A DNA stretch of 64,000 nt from Candidatus Methanoperedenaceae archaeon. Its GTDB lineage: Archaea; Halobacteriota; Methanosarcinia; Methanosarcinales; Methanoperedenaceae. The stretch is taken from positions 32,001 to 96,000 of the forward strand of contig CAVWCX010000001.1 of NCBI GenBank assembly GCA_963753595.1. Direction: 5' to 3'. Within the stretch, counting starts at the first letter, position 1, and each line of letters begins with the position of its first letter. The notes under the pieces were generated by a model. The model had not been told where the DNA came from and ran no database searches. It worked only from the letters and a program-made list of their open reading frames with translations. Shown here one piece after another: positions 15,916 through 36,935 of the stretch. A program made the position numbers and the translations under genes.

Positions 15916-15980
15916 ATATATATGCAGAGAAACAGGCGAGAGTTGTCAGGATGGTTATGGAAATAGAAGGAATGCGGCAA
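15916..15980 (-). promoter_or_regulatory. Degenerate regulon operator plus TATA upstream of metY
   Basis: AAACAGGCGA (15930-39) then exactly 36 nt then GGCAA (15976-80), same geometry as the other copies. Confidence 0.55.
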
Positions 15981-16045
15981 AGAGTCGAAATATTTATCAG
16001 GTACATCATATATGTACACTAATAATACATCAATAAAGGTGCATA

Positions 16046-16273
16046 ATGAATACAGTCAGAGTAAATATAACCTTACCTTTAGAGATCGCAGAGATGTTAA
16101 GAAATGTGAAGAATAAATCCAGCTTTATTGCCGAAGCGATCAGGGAACGTATCGAGAGAGAAGAAAAAGCCAACCTTATCAGAGAATTGAGTGAAGGCTA
16201 TAAAGCAAGAAAGAAGGAGGATAAAGAATTAGCTAATGAATGGAGTATGACATTGGGGGATGGAATTGATTAG
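16046..16273 (+). CDS. Ribbon-helix-helix antitoxin
   Basis: [18 protein letters not shown]; overlaps the toxin gene. Confidence 0.85.
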
Positions 16274-16604
16274 AAGAGGCGAAGTTTATTGGGTCAAACT
16301 CGATCCGATCGAAGGATCAGAGATCGGGAAAACAAGACCAGCTGTCGTGATCTCAAATAATATTAACAATGAATTTGCTGATACTTTAACTGTCATTCCT
16401 GTCACTTCAAGTGTTGGGAAAGTGTACCCTTTTGAAGTTCTCATAAAGAAAGGTATTGCAAATGTATCAACCGATTCTAAAGTCAAGGCAAATCAAATAA
16501 GAACGGTGGATAAAAAGAGGCTGAATGAGCGAATAGGGATAATTCCTGATGAGATATTGAAAGAGATAGAGAAAGCCGTGAAGATCCACCTTGAAATTAA
16601 GTAA
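16260..16604 (+). CDS. mazF: MazF/PemK toxin
   Basis: [38 protein letters not shown]. Confidence 0.93.
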   Translation: MELIRRGEVYWVKLDPIEGSEIGKTRPAVVISNNINNEFADTLTVIPVTSSVGKVYPFEVLIKKGIANVSTDSKVKANQIRTVDKKRLNERIGIIPDEILKEIEKAVKIHLEIK

Positions 16605-16868
16605 GATCCTCTTAATTCAAACCTGCATAATCCATTACTGCTTTCTGGTCATTCAGGAATTTAACGATCTTCTCAAATTCGATATCATTTCCAGGTTCCT
16701 TGTTTTTGGTCTTAAGTTCAAAAGAGCTGTTCATTCTGGGACTGTTACATATTTTTTTCATCATATCGAGCACCATGAAGAGATAACACCGGTGAACATA
16801 TATAATTACACAAAGAGGCAGATGTTGACATAATTATTCCAACAACAAAAAAGCGTCTCAACTTATGA

Positions 16869-17168
16869 TTACATCTCTATCAAAGCAAGCTCGAACTTGA
16901 TCCCCATGCAGGATTGGCAGAATCCCATGAATTCTTTTGCATTGACGGACATTTCATCGTAGAGAGATTTCGATATGTAACAAACTATGTGGACTTTTCC
17001 GGGGTTCCCGGCGAGTTTCTTTTTTATTTCGCCGTGAAGCTCCTCAAAAATCGCCACAAAGGTCTTAAAGTTGATCCTTTTCAGGATACGGATGCGCCCC
17101 ACCCCTGTTTCATCTACCCATATCCTGTAATTGGCAGATTTTCTAACAAAAAGATCCGTATCATCCAT
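16869..17168 (-). CDS. Hypothetical protein with C-terminal CxxC
   Basis: 99-aa ORF 9 nt downstream of the 17178 gene, same strand. Confidence 0.7.
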   Translation of the reverse strand: MDDTDLFVRKSANYRIWVDETGVGRIRILKRINFKTFVAIFEELHGEIKKKLAGNPGKVHIVCYISKSLYDEMSVNAKEFMGFCQSCMGIKFELALIEM

Positions 17169-17177
17169 AATAGATTC

Positions 17178-17586
17178 TTAGTTCCTCTTACCGGCCTGGA
17201 TATCCCATCTCACATCTTGCGCCAGAGACCGTCTTGCAGCAGCTGCAATATCTAATTGTTCATATATATATTCACGTAAGTACATATCTTCTATTTTTTC
17301 CGCTTCATTTTCGATCTCATGCTGGCGACTGAGAATGTTTCCAAGTTCTCTTTGTGCATGATTCCTGTCTGTACGCTGCCAGCTTTCAGCTATTGTCGAA
17401 AGCGAGCGCCTTAATCTTTCAAGTCCGATCCTTATCCGGTGGAATTCCGGTCTTTTCAATCTTTCTTTTGCATAGTTTTCATATGGCGATTCCTGTTGAA
17501 TTTCCTCTGAAAATTCATCTATATCCGATACTTCACCATTCCATTTGTTATGGATGGCAAAAACGATCCCTTCTTTGGTTTAACAT
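17178..17586 (-). CDS. Helical hypothetical protein (~135 aa), predicted to be made by +1 frameshift at TTT-TGC (17557-17562) from leader MLNQRRDRFCHP* (17548..17586)
   Basis: +1 frame open for 128 codons from the slip site to the stop at 17178; no ATG before the TTG at 17459. Confidence 0.7.
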
Positions 17587-17615
17587 ATATTTCACATCAT
17601 CTTCATTAAAAAGAT

Positions 17616-17683
17616 GATATATATCCCTGAATATACAGGCAGGTTTTGTCACCATCTAAACAGAACCGGAATTATTACGACAA
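17616..17683 (-). promoter_or_regulatory. Degenerate regulon operator plus TATA
   Basis: ATACAGGCAG (17633-42) + 36 nt + GACAA (17679-83) next to TATATAT. Confidence 0.5.
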
Positions 17684-17726
17684 CAATTGCCTGATAGGGT
17701 AAACTTATGCTGATACTCTTCATAAA

Positions 17727-18035
17727 ATGGTTTCGGTGATCAATATGAGGGATATTTTTACAGGTGATGGGTTTAAGTTGCCAGATACAGGCATTTCAGG
17801 AAAAGGATTGGAAAATTACAGTTCTGCTAAGATCGAAGAATTCTCACCTTCGATGAAACTTGTTCTCAATATACTTGAAAATCATGGGCCACTGACACAA
17901 AAAGAGATAACGAAGGTAACCCGTCTTCCCACAAGAACAGTGCGCTATGCCTTAAACAGATTAAAACAGGAAGATATTTTAGAAGAGCGTGAATATTTCC
18001 AGGATGCCAGGCAGTGTTTATATCATATAAAATGA
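17727..18035 (+). CDS. Winged-helix (MarR/TrmB-like) transcriptional regulator
   Basis: KLVLNILENHGPLTQKEI...LPTRTVRYALNRL...DARQCLY. Confidence 0.88.
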   Translation: MVSVINMRDIFTGDGFKLPDTGISGKGLENYSSAKIEEFSPSMKLVLNILENHGPLTQKEITKVTRLPTRTVRYALNRLKQEDILEEREYFQDARQCLYHIK

Positions 18036-18080
18036 TTAGGCTTTTTTCAGGACTCTACAAGACTTGTTTTCAGGTAATAA

Positions 18081-35193: not shown

Positions 35194-35271
35194 GTGTGGT
35201 AGTATGAATGCCGGCATATTTTAAGTTTGTATTAAGGCAAAAAATGTAAGAGTTATTCGCTTTTTGATAAA

Positions 35272-35505
35272 TCAGCTTTTTCGTACAAAGATACTATAAT
35301 TTCCTTTGATAGCCTCTACGGCAAGCAGTTCATTCCCTGATTTCTTTGCCCATGCATCTATATTCTGTGGAGCTACAGGGTCGCTGGCAAGGATTTTTAA
35401 TACCTGCCCCTTTTGAAGTTTGTCCACCTGCTGTTTTGTCCGTATCAAAGGATAGGGGCATGCTTCGCCCCTTACATCCAGTTCGAAGTCGTGAACTATT
35501 GTCAT
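35272..35505 (-). CDS. tusA: TusA-family sulfur carrier
   Basis: LDVRGEACPYP. Confidence 0.9.
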   Translation of the reverse strand: MTIVHDFELDVRGEACPYPLIRTKQQVDKLQKGQVLKILASDPVAPQNIDAWAKKSGNELLAVEAIKGNYSIFVRKS

Positions 35506-35506
35506 A

Positions 35507-35881
35507 TCAGAACACCAGTGTCACTTCACTCTCCAGTATCCTGTTCGTCAGGTCATCGATGTTAAGTTTAGATATTCCTTCGATAATTTCGCTGTCAGCC
35601 ACACCTCTTTTCTTCAGGTCCGCCTCCAGGGCATAGAACTTCACGCTATCCTTTGCCTTAATGATGCTTGCTTCAATGCTTGGCACATCTTTCTGCCATA
35701 CAGCAGCATCGCCGTAGCTGGTCTTCTGTCCCTTTACCACAGAGTGAACACCTCCACTCACAAAAGTGATGGACGGCGAATTTCCTGCCGCAGCCTGCGT
35801 CTCAGCAAGCGGGATCGCGCTGTATGCATCTTCCTTGCCGTAAGGGGGCTGTGTCACGATTATGTTTACTTTCTTGCTCAT
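35507..35881 (-). CDS. DsrF/TusC-like protein
   Basis: IIVTQPPYG, FVSGGVHSVVKGQ, ADLKKRGV. Confidence 0.85.
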   Translation of the reverse strand: MSKKVNIIVTQPPYGKEDAYSAIPLAETQAAAGNSPSITFVSGGVHSVVKGQKTSYGDAAVWQKDVPSIEASIIKAKDSVKFYALEADLKKRGVADSEIIEGISKLNIDDLTNRILESEVTLVF

Positions 35882-35886
35882 TTTTA

Positions 35887-36267
35887 TTACCCTAATAATA
35901 TGGTCTTGTCTGATTCTGCTGTCCATTCACCAAGATCGTAAAGTCCGCCGATGACAACGCCTTCTGTCTGCTGTTTTGTCACACCGCGGGCATCTGTGCA
36001 TTTGATGCATGCTATTGCATCGGTCTTGGGATTCTTCAGTCCTTTCTTGAGAACGGTGCCAAAGAGCTGCTCAACGACTGGGAATTCTTTTGGTCCCTGG
36101 TCGCGGTGTCCGATCAACGTGCCATCCAGGTAGTTGAAGAAGTTGACATTGATCCCTTTCTCTTTTGCAGCATGGGCGAGCCTGATAAGCGTGTATGCCG
36201 CTTCATCGCGATATGGGCCGTTTATCGATACGATCGTTAAGGTTTTATTATAGCCGTTGTTTGCCAT
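35887..36267 (-). CDS. DsrE/TusD-like protein
   Basis: GPY, FFNYLDG, ACIKCTDARG active-site Cys. Confidence 0.85.
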   Translation of the reverse strand: MANNGYNKTLTIVSINGPYRDEAAYTLIRLAHAAKEKGINVNFFNYLDGTLIGHRDQGPKEFPVVEQLFGTVLKKGLKNPKTDAIACIKCTDARGVTKQQTEGVVIGGLYDLGEWTAESDKTILLG

Positions 36268-36276
36268 TGTATCACC

Positions 36277-36603
36277 TTAGAACCATGCCACTCGTGTGTT
36301 ATCTTCAACTATGTTGTCAAGGAGTGTTCCTATTTCATTTACCTGTACCCGGTCGGCCAGGTTCCCGTCAAGTCCCCTTGACTGCACAGCCCTGTCATCT
36401 GCAAGGATTTTGATGCCTTTCTTTTTAGCATCCTGGAGTTTATTCCCGAATTCACTTTTCCGAGCAGCGGTAACTCCGTCCTCTACAAGATAAAGAGAAA
36501 CATTGTTGCCTTTTGTTTTGGCATTTAACCCGATATCCAGAACGAGATTTGGTATCTCGGTCGTATATGGGTCTTTGGATAATACCAGTAATAGATTTGT
36601 CAT
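36277..36603 (-). CDS. DsrH/TusB-like protein
   Basis: LYLVEDGVTAA, AVQSRGL. Confidence 0.82.
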   Translation of the reverse strand: MTNLLLVLSKDPYTTEIPNLVLDIGLNAKTKGNNVSLYLVEDGVTAARKSEFGNKLQDAKKKGIKILADDRAVQSRGLDGNLADRVQVNEIGTLLDNIVEDNTRVAWF

Positions 36604-36605
36604 GT

Positions 36606-36831
36606 TTATCTACCTCTGAAATTAATTGTTCGTTTATTATTCAATCCGGCAGTCAATTCATTCTCAACTCTTGCTATCATAGAATCAAGTGTTTCAAGTA
36701 TCGGCGTTCTTCTTTGCGCCCTTGAATACTCAAATTCGCGCCATTCCCTTAAGGTATTGAGGACCGGGGTTGTTTTCTGTGCTTTGCCTTTATCGGTGAC
36801 AAAGGCGATTCCTTCTTTTTATCTGATTAAT
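36606..36831 (-). CDS. Leader (ATT)NQIKRRNRLCHR* (36790..36831) with +1 extension from CTT-TGT (36799-36804) ending 2 nt before the dsrH-like ATG
   Basis: GGTGA RBS 6 nt before ATT; AGA AGG AAT CGC CTT TGT CAC; +1 frame open 66 codons (VTDKGKAQKTTPVLNTLREWREFEYSRAQRRTPILETLDSMIARVENELTAGLNNKRTINFRGR*). Confidence 0.7.
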
Positions 36832-36865
36832 ATTGTATCACCAGATACCTGATTATTAATGCAAT

Positions 36866-36935
36866 ACTTATATCAGTTCAGAAATCAGCAACTTTTGATT
36901 GGTTAATTCTGTTTTTGTAACAATTGGGGCAAGTT
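36866..36935 (-). promoter_or_regulatory. Regulon operator plus TATA
   Basis: AAATCAGCAA (36882-91) + 36 nt + GGCAA (36928-32). Confidence 0.8.

Follow-up and report, generated by a model that had tools for sequence, protein, structure and literature searches.

A nested dyad of about 60 bp before TATA boxes in Methanoperedenaceae: candidate activator site of a regulon for sulfur limitation, with a possible cysteine-sensing frameshift as its gate

Why should genes for methionine synthesis, two transporters, a dehydratase, an S-layer protein, a long reductase operon and a DsrE/TusA operon share one long sequence, rigidly spaced, in front of their TATA boxes? The question is raised by a 64,000-nt stretch of a Candidatus Methanoperedenaceae archaeon (GenBank assembly GCA_963753595.1, contig CAVWCX010000001.1, positions 32,001 to 96,000 of the forward strand), here called the window. 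A preliminary description of this DNA noticed a composite element, TTGC(C/T)-N36-TTGCTGATTT, followed closely by TATA, in about nine copies, and took it for an activator site that defines one sulfur-limitation regulon. The analyses reported here indicate that the element is very probably a cis-regulatory protein site that defines a regulon. The best explanation of the whole, which is given slightly better than even chances from what can be read in the sequence, is that it is the activator site of a sulfur-limitation regulon that is possibly gated by a frameshift sensing Cys-tRNA.

The element itself is real. Five exact matches to TTGCY-N36-TTGCTGATTT are present in the window, each on the minus strand (27365-27415, 28676-28726, 30021-30071, 34803-34853 and 36882-36932), compared to zero occurrences in 100 dinucleotide shuffles, and these five are also the total for the assembly (37 contigs, 2,888,054 bp, 40.5% G+C). 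Relaxing the pattern to TTGCY-N36-TTGC gives 61 places genome-wide, among which the inner features and a TATA box are found only at the same five and at 32107. By itself, the TTGCTGATTT decamer shows no enrichment when one mismatch is permitted (15 observed, 12 expected); the signal is therefore the composite. A sequence-only covariance model (R1), built from 80 aligned sites, calibrated, and run on the window without filters, returned six strong sites (E <= 1.7e-14). A second profile, made from 63 exact sites of the source genome and its relatives and run over the whole genome, recovered six strong copies (E 3e-19 to 2e-8), followed by 18073-18148(+) at E 0.02, while a mononucleotide-shuffled genome gave no match at E <= 1. 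Outside the window the 63-site profile has no match at E <= 0.1, and all strong matches of this genome fall within a 21-kb island. A further match at 42956-43005(-) (E 1.7e-3) contains TTGCTGATTT in a shifted register, upstream of a PIN-domain gene (42279-42695), and is taken as probably due to chance. The estimate of about nine copies was right in substance, with six strong copies and weaker variants before metY, the small genes unk93 and unk99, a zinc-ribbon gene and two genes for winged helix-turn-helix proteins (wHTH_A and wHTH_B). The strong copies are listed below, with spans that cover motif positions -10 to +67; MFS stands for major facilitator superfamily and ORF for open reading frame.

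27349-27425 (core 27365-27415), minus strand: strong copy 1, E 4.8e-21, before the activase operon (26497-27303 down to about 20544).
28660-28736 (core 28676-28726), minus strand: strong copy 2, E 2.3e-21, before an MFS transporter gene (27449-28639).
30005-30081 (core 30021-30071), minus strand: strong copy 3, E 1.7e-20, before an MFS transporter gene (28764-29984).
32091-32167 (core 32107-32157), minus strand: strong variant copy 4 with proximal arm TTGCTTACAT, E 9.5e-16, before the LeuC/LeuD-like (HacAB-like) dehydratase genes (30297-32063).
34787-34863 (core 34803-34853), minus strand: strong copy 5, E 4e-15, before the gene for an S-layer-domain paralog (33435-34751).
36866-36942 (core 36882-36932), minus strand: strong copy 6, E 1.7e-14, before the 'dsr leader' ORF and the operon of three DsrE and two TusA genes (34975-36831).

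The spacer of exactly 36 nt also holds: all 80 sites align without gaps over 77 columns with the N36 spacing constant, which was imposed by the search pattern for 63 of them, the other 17 having been found by profile. Read in gene orientation, the sites share a distal cGGAAAAta, an ATTC near position 13, a central CCGAATAAAT, GaCAAC before the proximal decamer, CTnTA after it and a TATA box in a fixed place. The reverse complement of each site re-matches the profile weakly at a constant offset of 13 nt, and comparison of the position matrix with its own reverse complement yields one outstanding register, centred at motif position 19.5, with a dyad score of 10.79 that none of 500 column shuffles reaches (mean 5.19, maximum 9.12). 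TTGCC (1-5) pairs with GnCAA (34-38) in the middle and ATTC (12-15) with GAAT (24-27) inside, with a weaker outer pair of GGAAAA (-8 to -3) and TTGCTGA (42-48), and the boxes within one half are spaced by about one helical turn. The element is an imperfect nested dyad of about 60 bp (57 bp), at motif positions of roughly -10 to +51, and this architecture displaces the earlier picture of TTGC half-sites repeated directly 41 bp apart. The dyad at 19.5 gives the element a symmetry compatible with a multimeric DNA-binding protein.

Dyads in short gaps between co-directional genes could have other origins. The partial symmetry and the intergenic placement would suit a transcribed RNA element, such as a terminator or processing signal belonging to the preceding gene, a leader or a riboswitch, but RNAalifold finds zero base pairs in the 80-sequence alignment, Rfam has zero matching families in 14000-38000 at E <= 0.1, specific bases are conserved with no compensatory changes, and the site lies upstream of the TATA box of its own gene; the probability left to this reading is close to nil. 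A recombination or mobile-element site, for example one like an integron attC site that separates gene cassettes, is hardly more credible. It would account for six co-oriented imperfect palindromes of about 60 bp between co-directional genes in an island whose content varies between genomes and which is flanked by a cluster of insertion-sequence (IS) transposases at 18-11056. Against it, single-stranded DNA folds of seven of eight sites are at shuffle level (z -1.6 to +1.0) and the eighth has an unrelated shape, no tyrosine recombinase or integrase is present among the window ORFs scanned, the element is phased to TATA boxes and start codons, copies lie on both strands at divergent promoters, and orthologs keep class-specific copies. 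The RNA-element, terminator and attC-like readings were rejected on the absence of a fold, of an Rfam match and of an integrase among the scanned ORFs, together with the copies on both strands. The flanking segment at 18-11056 has a low G+C content (35-37%) and five DDE-transposase ORFs that are read as IS elements, and a near-identical inverted duplicate lies at 801-838(+) and 6289-6326(-).

The preliminary description placed the element upstream of the TFB recognition element (BRE) and the TATA box, which is confirmed in a fixed phase: TATA occupies positions +62 to +66, 9-10 nt past the core (n = 79), with A64 in 79/79 sites, T63 in 76/79 (96%) and T65 in 91%. Other unselected positions are also fixed in these 79 sites (A56 94%, G24/A25/A26 91-94%, C36 92%, A38 99%), positions 52-56 (CTnTA) between arm and TATA are conserved, and the promoter-proximal arm, which ends 2 nt before the presumed BRE, is the best-conserved part. 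Start codons follow the core by 37-39 nt at 21 of the 85 sites examined, placing them some 25 nt beyond the TATA centre; in both window MFS genes the distance is 37 nt. Archaeal transcripts usually begin about 25 nt past the TATA centre, because of which the mRNAs of the MFS, radical-SAM (S-adenosylmethionine) and some ABC (ATP-binding cassette) transporter genes are predicted to be leaderless. For other genes behind the element the leader measures 44-64 nt and includes a ribosome-binding site of the GGAGG type.

Fixed TATA register and a conserved CTnTA might indicate nothing more than an extended core promoter, read by a TFB/TBP paralog, or one strong module that was duplicated through the island without a dedicated sensor-regulator. 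Both MFS promoters and, in part, the leuC promoter are alike downstream of TATA too, as paralogous duplicates would be. This explanation is improbable: promoters of non-homologous genes (dsrE, S-layer, activase, radical-SAM and NifH-like) have boxes in common but not spacers, a 57-bp dyad far exceeds any known BRE, and the distal boxes are kept across species in orthologous promoters.

If a dedicated protein binds here, it could work in either direction. In archaea, the sites of repressors usually overlap TATA/BRE or the start of the transcript, and those upstream of the BRE are typical of activators (Ptr2, TrmBL1, SurR). Activation rather than repression is modestly favoured from this placement. 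A repressor operator, at which a wHTH multimer beside BRE/TATA blocks TFB/TBP when sulfur is plentiful and is released on limitation, is unlikely. It draws on the end of the proximal arm being 2 nt from the presumed BRE, on variant copies that overlap the divergent wHTH_A and unk93 promoters, on near-consensus TATA boxes (TATATAT) that might fire unaided, and on the presence of two paralogs with one recognition helix that could be a repressor and an anti-repressor. It is weakened because the usual archaeal repressor sites overlap the core promoter, whereas the element lies wholly upstream of BRE/TATA, with positions -10 to +40 at 20-70 bp from TATA, beyond what occlusion needs.

The distribution of the element in related genomes is consistent with a regulator site. 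The exact pattern has 99 copies in 30 of 53 family genomes and none in the reversed-pattern control; in a first sample it was present in 17/24 same-genus genomes and in 0/16 genomes from five other families of the order. R1 at E <= 0.01 detects at least one site in 47/53 family genomes, with up to 17 per genome, and in an order-wide sample R1 is positive in 37/43 family genomes compared to 3/97 from other families. One of these three outside positives (G108; 80% complete, 3% contamination) has three good R1 matches with E-values of 1e-11 to 6e-9 (C396:2312-2384, C170:1944-2016 and C406:26554-26622), which may come from a contaminated bin or from lateral acquisition of a piece of the island. 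Within each genome the copies are grouped on one or two contigs. Orthologous genes keep orthologous, class-specific copies across species, in which the distal boxes are conserved as well, and the non-homologous dsrE, S-layer, activase, radical-SAM and NifH-like genes have promoters that agree in boxes and differ in spacers. The element is thus kept before orthologs across species and limited to one functional set of genes, as expected of an upstream regulator site.

That set of genes points to sulfur. Targets in the window are metY-metX-metW, the two paralogous MFS transporters, the LeuC/LeuD-like (HacAB-like) dehydratase, the S-layer-domain protein, the operon of three DsrE and two TusA genes, and a long operon that encodes a BcrAD-type activase, a double-cubane/HGD-D-type reductase, SsuB/SsuC-like components, a second HGD-D-type protein, an SsuA-family binding protein and TusA, to which the methanogenesis-marker-8 and NifX-like genes after TusA possibly also belong. 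The sulfur-related inventory of the window amounts to MetX/MetY/MetW, three DsrE-type proteins, three TusA proteins and an SsuABC-like transporter. Among 14 relatives the element also precedes further SsuABC-like sets, up to five tandem HGD-D/SsuA pairs, a radical-SAM protein, a reductive-dehalogenase/QueG-like Fe-S protein, a CbiX/CfbA-like chelatase, an aldo-keto reductase with Fe-S domains, SAM methyltransferases and a NifH-like protein, with content that varies from island to island. The targets converge on the import and reductive conversion of (organo)sulfur compounds, on sulfur relay and on direct sulfhydrylation. The large LeuC/HacA-like subunit of the window is split into two overlapping frames at 30820-31695 and 31539-32063 on the minus strand (291 and 174 aa); in relatives it is intact as a 414-aa ORF (e.g., L151:11759-13000), and the split results from a frameshift mutation or from a mistake in the assembly. 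One relative's island (L153, G059:C15:82001-102000) has at 8910-19975 five tandem pairs of HGD-D/double-cubane-type and SsuA-like genes, an arrangement that suggests a diversified family of substrate-specific organosulfur reductases.

Amino acid composition supports the sulfur theme independently, by low contents of cysteine and methionine in the encoded proteins. Proteins induced under sulfur starvation are known to be sulfur-poor. The 14 island proteins of at least 150 aa have mean contents of 0.74% Cys and 1.84% Met (sum 2.58%), compared to 1.36% Cys and 2.44% Met (sum 3.80%) in the 2,319 ORFs of the genome that reach this length; 18 of 20,000 random sets of 14 proteins were as low as the island, and after exclusion of three membrane proteins, a choice made post hoc, 0 of 20,000 were. 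MetY lacks Cys and contains a single internal Met over its 428 aa, the 397 residues of the reductase at 25307-26500 include one Met, and DsrE1 is free of both Cys and Met. The S-layer gene, which had been counted among the members of the regulon not obviously related to sulfur, turns out to encode a sulfur-poor paralog: the protein of 33435-34751 contains 0.46% Cys+Met, compared to 1.4-2.8% in four long paralogs elsewhere in the genome and about 1.7% in two short fragments. It is plausibly a sulfur-sparing replacement, and its sulfur-poor composition explains its membership. For the claim of one sulfur-limitation regulon, the single co-located set of operons, the strong sulfur theme of the genes and the composition test (18/20,000) are favourable; limitation as the signal is a step beyond these data, and sulfur or cysteine limitation is the likely signal.

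Which protein would read the element? The stretch from metY to the long operon is occupied by a conserved module, in which metY with its variant site is followed by unk99-unk93, the overlapping divergent sites, wHTH_A, a further site before the zinc-ribbon gene, and wHTH_B. It is complete or partial in most of the 20 loci fetched around its genes. Its parts in the window are as follows.

15916-15982, minus strand: metY variant copy, E 1.2e-5, proximal arm TCGCCTGTTT, before metY-metX-metW (15848 down to 12469).
16797-16850, minus strand: partial variant copy, E 8.8e-4, proximal half CTGCCTCTTT and TATA.
16869-17459, minus strand: unk99 and unk93, two small conserved genes that are always divergent from wHTH_A in the module.
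17617-17696, both strands: divergent intergenic region with two overlapping variant copies.
17617-17690, minus strand: variant copy, E 0.21, facing unk93/unk99.
17646-17696 (R1 match 17644-17690), plus strand: variant copy, E 1.6e-3, facing wHTH_A, with the ATG 31 nt past the core.
17727-18035, plus strand: wHTH_A, a 102-aa winged-helix protein with an ordinary ATG, HTH_24 score 30.0 bits (cut-off 21.9), one Cys.
18073-18145, plus strand: zinc-ribbon variant copy, E 3.9e-5, proximal arm TTGGCTCATTT, TATA at about 18141-18150, before the zinc-ribbon gene (18321-18479).
18711-18758, plus strand: wHTH_B promoter, proximal half GACAACAATTGCTCCGAT and then TATA TTTATAAA, kept in orthologs.
18792-19080, plus strand: wHTH_B, ATG at 18792, wHTH frame from 18814 to the stop at 19078-19080, HTH_24 score 25.6 bits (cut-off 21.9).

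The metY site at 15930-15980 carries CTCGCCTGTTT, and the TCGCCTGTTT variant class before metY is kept in relatives. The copy at 16797-16850 is kept as well, there immediately upstream of unk99, whereas here unk99 (16869-17168) lies on its opposite side. The minus-strand copy at 17617-17690 is weak in this genome and kept in relatives, and the wHTH_B promoter has a partial R1 match at 18711-18737(+) (E 0.096). Positions 17586 and 18177, before which more degenerate copies had been noted, are not motif coordinates; they fit as predicted starts of the leaders downstream of the 17617-17690(-) and 18073-18145(+) copies. In the proximal arms of the module promoters the variants are TCGCCTGTTT, CTGCCTCTTT, TTGCCTGATA and TTTGCTCATTT, which hints at autoregulation and perhaps at two classes of site.

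Both wHTH proteins pass the gathering score of Pfam HTH_24, and their recognition helices are nearly identical (RTVRYALNRL, more widely LPtRTVRYALNRLK). Both paralogs may be expected to read the same boxes, with competition or heterodimers as a possibility. Orthologs of wHTH_B (at least 81% identity) are present in 26/29 genomes with the exact motif compared to 7/24 without it, and orthologs of wHTH_A in 19/29 compared to 3/24; one genome (G065) was dropped from the motif-positive set, its three matches being without inner boxes. The proposal that the two local wHTH proteins are the partners of the element stands to the extent that both genes travel with it and that their own promoters carry variant copies; the binding role goes further than these observations, and wHTH_A/B are its binders by a narrowly favourable estimate. 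A PDB sequence search with wHTH_A returned generic MarR/Lrp-type wHTH proteins only (best E 0.0067, MgrA). Pfam and NCBIfam have no match for unk93, unk99, unk158 or the 65-aa ORF described below, for which a protein atlas likewise gave no usable match, and for unk99 the atlas offered only weak leads (STAS/SpoIIAA-like at 0.86). The gene unk158 (37062-37538), divergent from the dsrE promoter, was considered as a regulator and set aside, as it has no counterpart in the other loci. Two local features complete the neighbourhood: a MazE-like/MazF (PemK) toxin-antitoxin pair at 16046-16604 (+), inserted between the metY promoter and unk99 and found at the equivalent place in some relatives only (L155, L185 and L188), and, beyond the island, a UvrD-type helicase N-terminal part (38426-39700) and a UvrD_C plus PD-(D/E)XK nuclease part (40138-41673), both on the plus strand and about 440 bp apart, which could be a split or interrupted AddA/Dna2-like gene.

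How wHTH_B comes to be translated is less obvious. Its frame has no ATG, GTG or TTG between an in-frame TGA and the conserved N-terminal residues, and the conserved ATG at 18792, preceded by GGAG, opens another frame, M-N-F-R-R-N-R-L-C, that meets a stop a few codons on. A +1 slip is predicted at CUU 18813-18815, which precedes UGC 18816-18818, and the product would contain neither Cys nor Met. The same arrangement occurs at a second place in the window.

36606-36831, minus strand: 'dsr leader' ORF, frame 0 (I/M)NQIKRRNRL-C, CUU 36804-36802 and UGU 36801-36799, +1 frame 36803-36609.

The +1 frame of the 'dsr leader' comprises 65 residues here and is conserved at 62-65 aa, it is start-less, and its stop lies 2 nt before the ATG of dsrE1 (36603). 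The leader is consequently not the non-coding sequence for which it had been taken: it encodes a conserved 65-residue frame that is entered, as predicted, via a recoding cassette. Common to the two loci is the cassette ATG..AGG-AAU-CGN-CUU-UGY, in which a +1 slip at CUU is needed to reach the downstream frame. The 15-mer AGGAATCGNCTTTGY has exactly two copies in this genome, at wHTH_B and at the dsr leader; it has 82 copies in 39/53 family genomes, with none for the reversed control, and outside the family it is at background level (seven in 231 genomes of the order, compared to 11 for the reversed control).

The family yielded 39 cassettes for inspection (28 + 11); a AGGAATCGNCTTTGY locus from another family lies inside a long ORF and was excluded as a chance match. 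The downstream frame lacks ATG, GTG and TTG after its last stop, 3-8 codons upstream, in all 39, and a frame-0 ATG lies 5-10 codons upstream with GGAG or GGTGA before it in 37. In 38 cassettes the frame-0 stop follows the Cys codon at a distance of 1-8 codons, and in the remaining one at 23. The cassette heads three unrelated types of ORF, namely wHTH_B and its paralogs, the 62-65-aa ORF, and an ORF of 40-42 aa in three genomes; immediately upstream of the cassettes of the 40-42-aa ORF, and of one cassette of the 65-aa ORF (in G042), stands a variant copy of the promoter element. In the core only CGT/CGC and TGC/TGT vary, which is silent in frame 0 (Arg, Cys) and residue-changing in the +1 frame (Val/Ala), and past the slip site third-position changes fit the +1 frame. 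This substitution pattern argues that translation keeps to frame 0 as far as the Cys codon and is in the +1 frame beyond it. CTT-T is invariant in 39/39 cassettes, and CUU is the only codon of the obligatory overlap able to re-pair at +1 (on UUU); the A-site codon is always Cys (UGC/UGU), and a purine-rich AGAAGGAA lies 5 nt upstream of CUU. That real +1 frameshifting takes place at the cassette is rather likely. The genome contains SepRS, SepCysS and CysRS, all above family cut-offs, so Cys-tRNA charging can depend on sulfur supply. Control of the frameshift by Cys-tRNA is a tentative proposal to which slightly less than an even chance is given.

The proposed mechanism combines both parts. 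The element would be the docking site of a dedicated transcription regulator, a wHTH multimer bound to the boxes on one face of the helix, which, seated just upstream of the BRE, would most likely help TFB/TBP to load and activate the six strong promoters here and up to 17 profile matches in relatives. Ribosomes would begin at the short frame M..RRNRL, pause while Leu-tRNA occupies CUU and the A site presents UGY, and slip +1 to UUU; scarce Cys-tRNA(Cys), meaning sulfur shortage, would increase slipping, and wHTH_B would be made chiefly under this condition. It would then activate all promoters with the 60-bp dyad, which would couple translational sensing to transcription. The same slip could carry ribosomes through the 65-aa ORF, translationally coupled into dsrE1, and wHTH_A, which shares the recognition helix and starts at an ordinary codon, may act as a basal partner or an antagonist. 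That the regulon is switched in this way, by a translational cysteine sensor in which the CUU-UGY slip makes wHTH_B and the 65-aa ORF, is possible, with confidence somewhat below the midpoint.

Several points weigh against this account. Position is the sole ground for assigning an activator, and the BRE-abutting proximal arm could let a bound protein occlude the core promoter; the sulfur-limitation signal derives from gene content. Membrane proteins of the island are Met-rich, and their exclusion from the composition test was post hoc. The wHTH family is present in 49/53 genomes and the element in 47/53, which makes their co-occurrence a weak discriminator, and the relatives are not independent samples. 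At the cassette, ATT replaces ATG in two of 39 cases, including the dsrE copy of this window (36829-36831), which could mean weakened initiation or early decay of this dsrE-leader copy (the second ATT cassette is in G046, L162; other examined copies of the dsrE-leader class have ATG). The purine stretch is 5 nt from CUU, not the 3 nt of prfB. Finally, the invariant GGAATCGTCTTTGC resembles the distal end of the element (GGAA..TTGCC), and the invariant bases of the cassette could on that likeness be an operator half-site downstream of the start, with translation from a non-canonical codon; an operator half-site leaves the frame-0 codon pattern unexplained.

No description of the element, the regulon or the cassette was found in searches with motif strings, the genus combined with regulation or sulfur, and archaeal frameshifting, with coverage that excludes most subscription journals and supplements. 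In these searches the cassette strings had zero occurrences, those of TTGCTGATTT were unrelated primers, and the literature found on the genus has no link to frameshifting or to this regulon; its gene regulation is, as far as found, undescribed in print. For archaeal cellular genes, a 2021 review (PMC8211752) gives one -1 frameshift as shown and +1 frameshifting as suggested only. An archaeal regulator site upstream of TATA is of a known kind; what is unusual here is the size and nested-dyad build, the lineage and the link to a putative translational cysteine sensor. The hosts appear to be nitrate- or metal-dependent methane oxidisers, to judge from their multihaem cytochromes (36, 19, 18 and 17 haems in this genome), and to our knowledge these archaea are not genetically manipulable. 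A family-wide promoter code offers a handle on how they cope with sulfur scarcity, naming about 10-17 co-controlled operons per genome, and it points to anaerobic organosulfur scavenging by tandem pairs of SsuA-like proteins and ATP-dependent double-cubane-type reductases, to which some genomes add NifH-like proteins. If functional, the cassette would add regulatory +1 frameshifting to archaeal biology, as a compact and portable cysteine-responsive switch. As a regulatory +1 programmed frameshift it would be without precedent in archaeal cellular genes and, should it sense cysteine as proposed, also the first one known to turn amino-acid (sulfur) supply into a transcription programme.

Among the upstream sites of small wHTH or Lrp-type archaeal activators, those of Ptr2 (Methanocaldococcus jannaschii), and those of TrmBL1 and SurR where placed upstream of the BRE, are alike in lying immediately upstream of BRE/TATA, in phase and with dyad symmetry, and in having a small winged-helix protein encoded nearby whose gene probably carries its own site. 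They differ in having one or two palindromes of 13-20 bp instead of about 60 bp with three box pairs. SurR of the Thermococcales recognizes GTTn3AAC and has a CxxC redox switch; GTTn3AAC is not in the consensus of this element, the wHTH candidates are stand-alone domains of 90-100 aa with no ligand or redox domain, and a SurR-type CxxC switch is excluded by zero Cys in wHTH_B and one in wHTH_A. Membership in the MsvR family was also rejected (NCBIfam NF053755, E 1.9e-4, residues 41-102, 21 bits compared to a cut-off of 220, with no V4R domain).

Bacterial sulfur-limitation regulons are the closest in gene content. CysB/Cbl control of ssu and tau likewise unites aliphatic-sulfonate-type ABC transporters with sulfur-assimilation enzymes, and such regulons also include anaerobic ATP-dependent organosulfur reductases and long activator sites upstream of the core promoter. 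In Rhodopseudomonas, nitrogenase-like C-S-cleaving Mar/Isr enzymes are encoded beside sulfonate transporters and induced by sulfate limitation, according to a preprint (10.64898/2026.08.20.746119); the NifH-like gene behind the element in some relatives' islands would be a parallel to these enzymes, and the case is a functional parallel, not evidence for this locus. The present reductases differ from Mar/Isr in being of the double-cubane/2-hydroxyacyl-CoA-dehydratase type with a BcrAD-type activase, and the present system differs from the bacterial regulons in its archaeal TATA/BRE promoter, the absence of a LysR-type regulator and the proposed translational sensing.

The cassette has its nearest likeness in two known +1 frameshifts via CUU, that of prfB (CUU-UGA), with a stimulator 3 nt upstream, and the 'hungry codon' site of Ty1 (CUU-AGG). 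As in prfB CUU-UGA-C and Ty1 CUU-AGG-C, a P-site Leu-tRNA on CUU could re-pair on UUU next to an A-site codon, which in the cassette may be slowly decoded. Also alike are the purine-rich stretch upstream, the early end of the zero frame, the downstream frame without its own start, and the placement close to the 5' end of a regulatory gene, a layout suited to autoregulation or sensing. The cassette differs in having a Cys codon in the A site instead of a stop or a rare Arg codon, in purines 5 nt instead of 3 nt from CUU, in its archaeal host, and in its modular use at the head of three unrelated ORFs.

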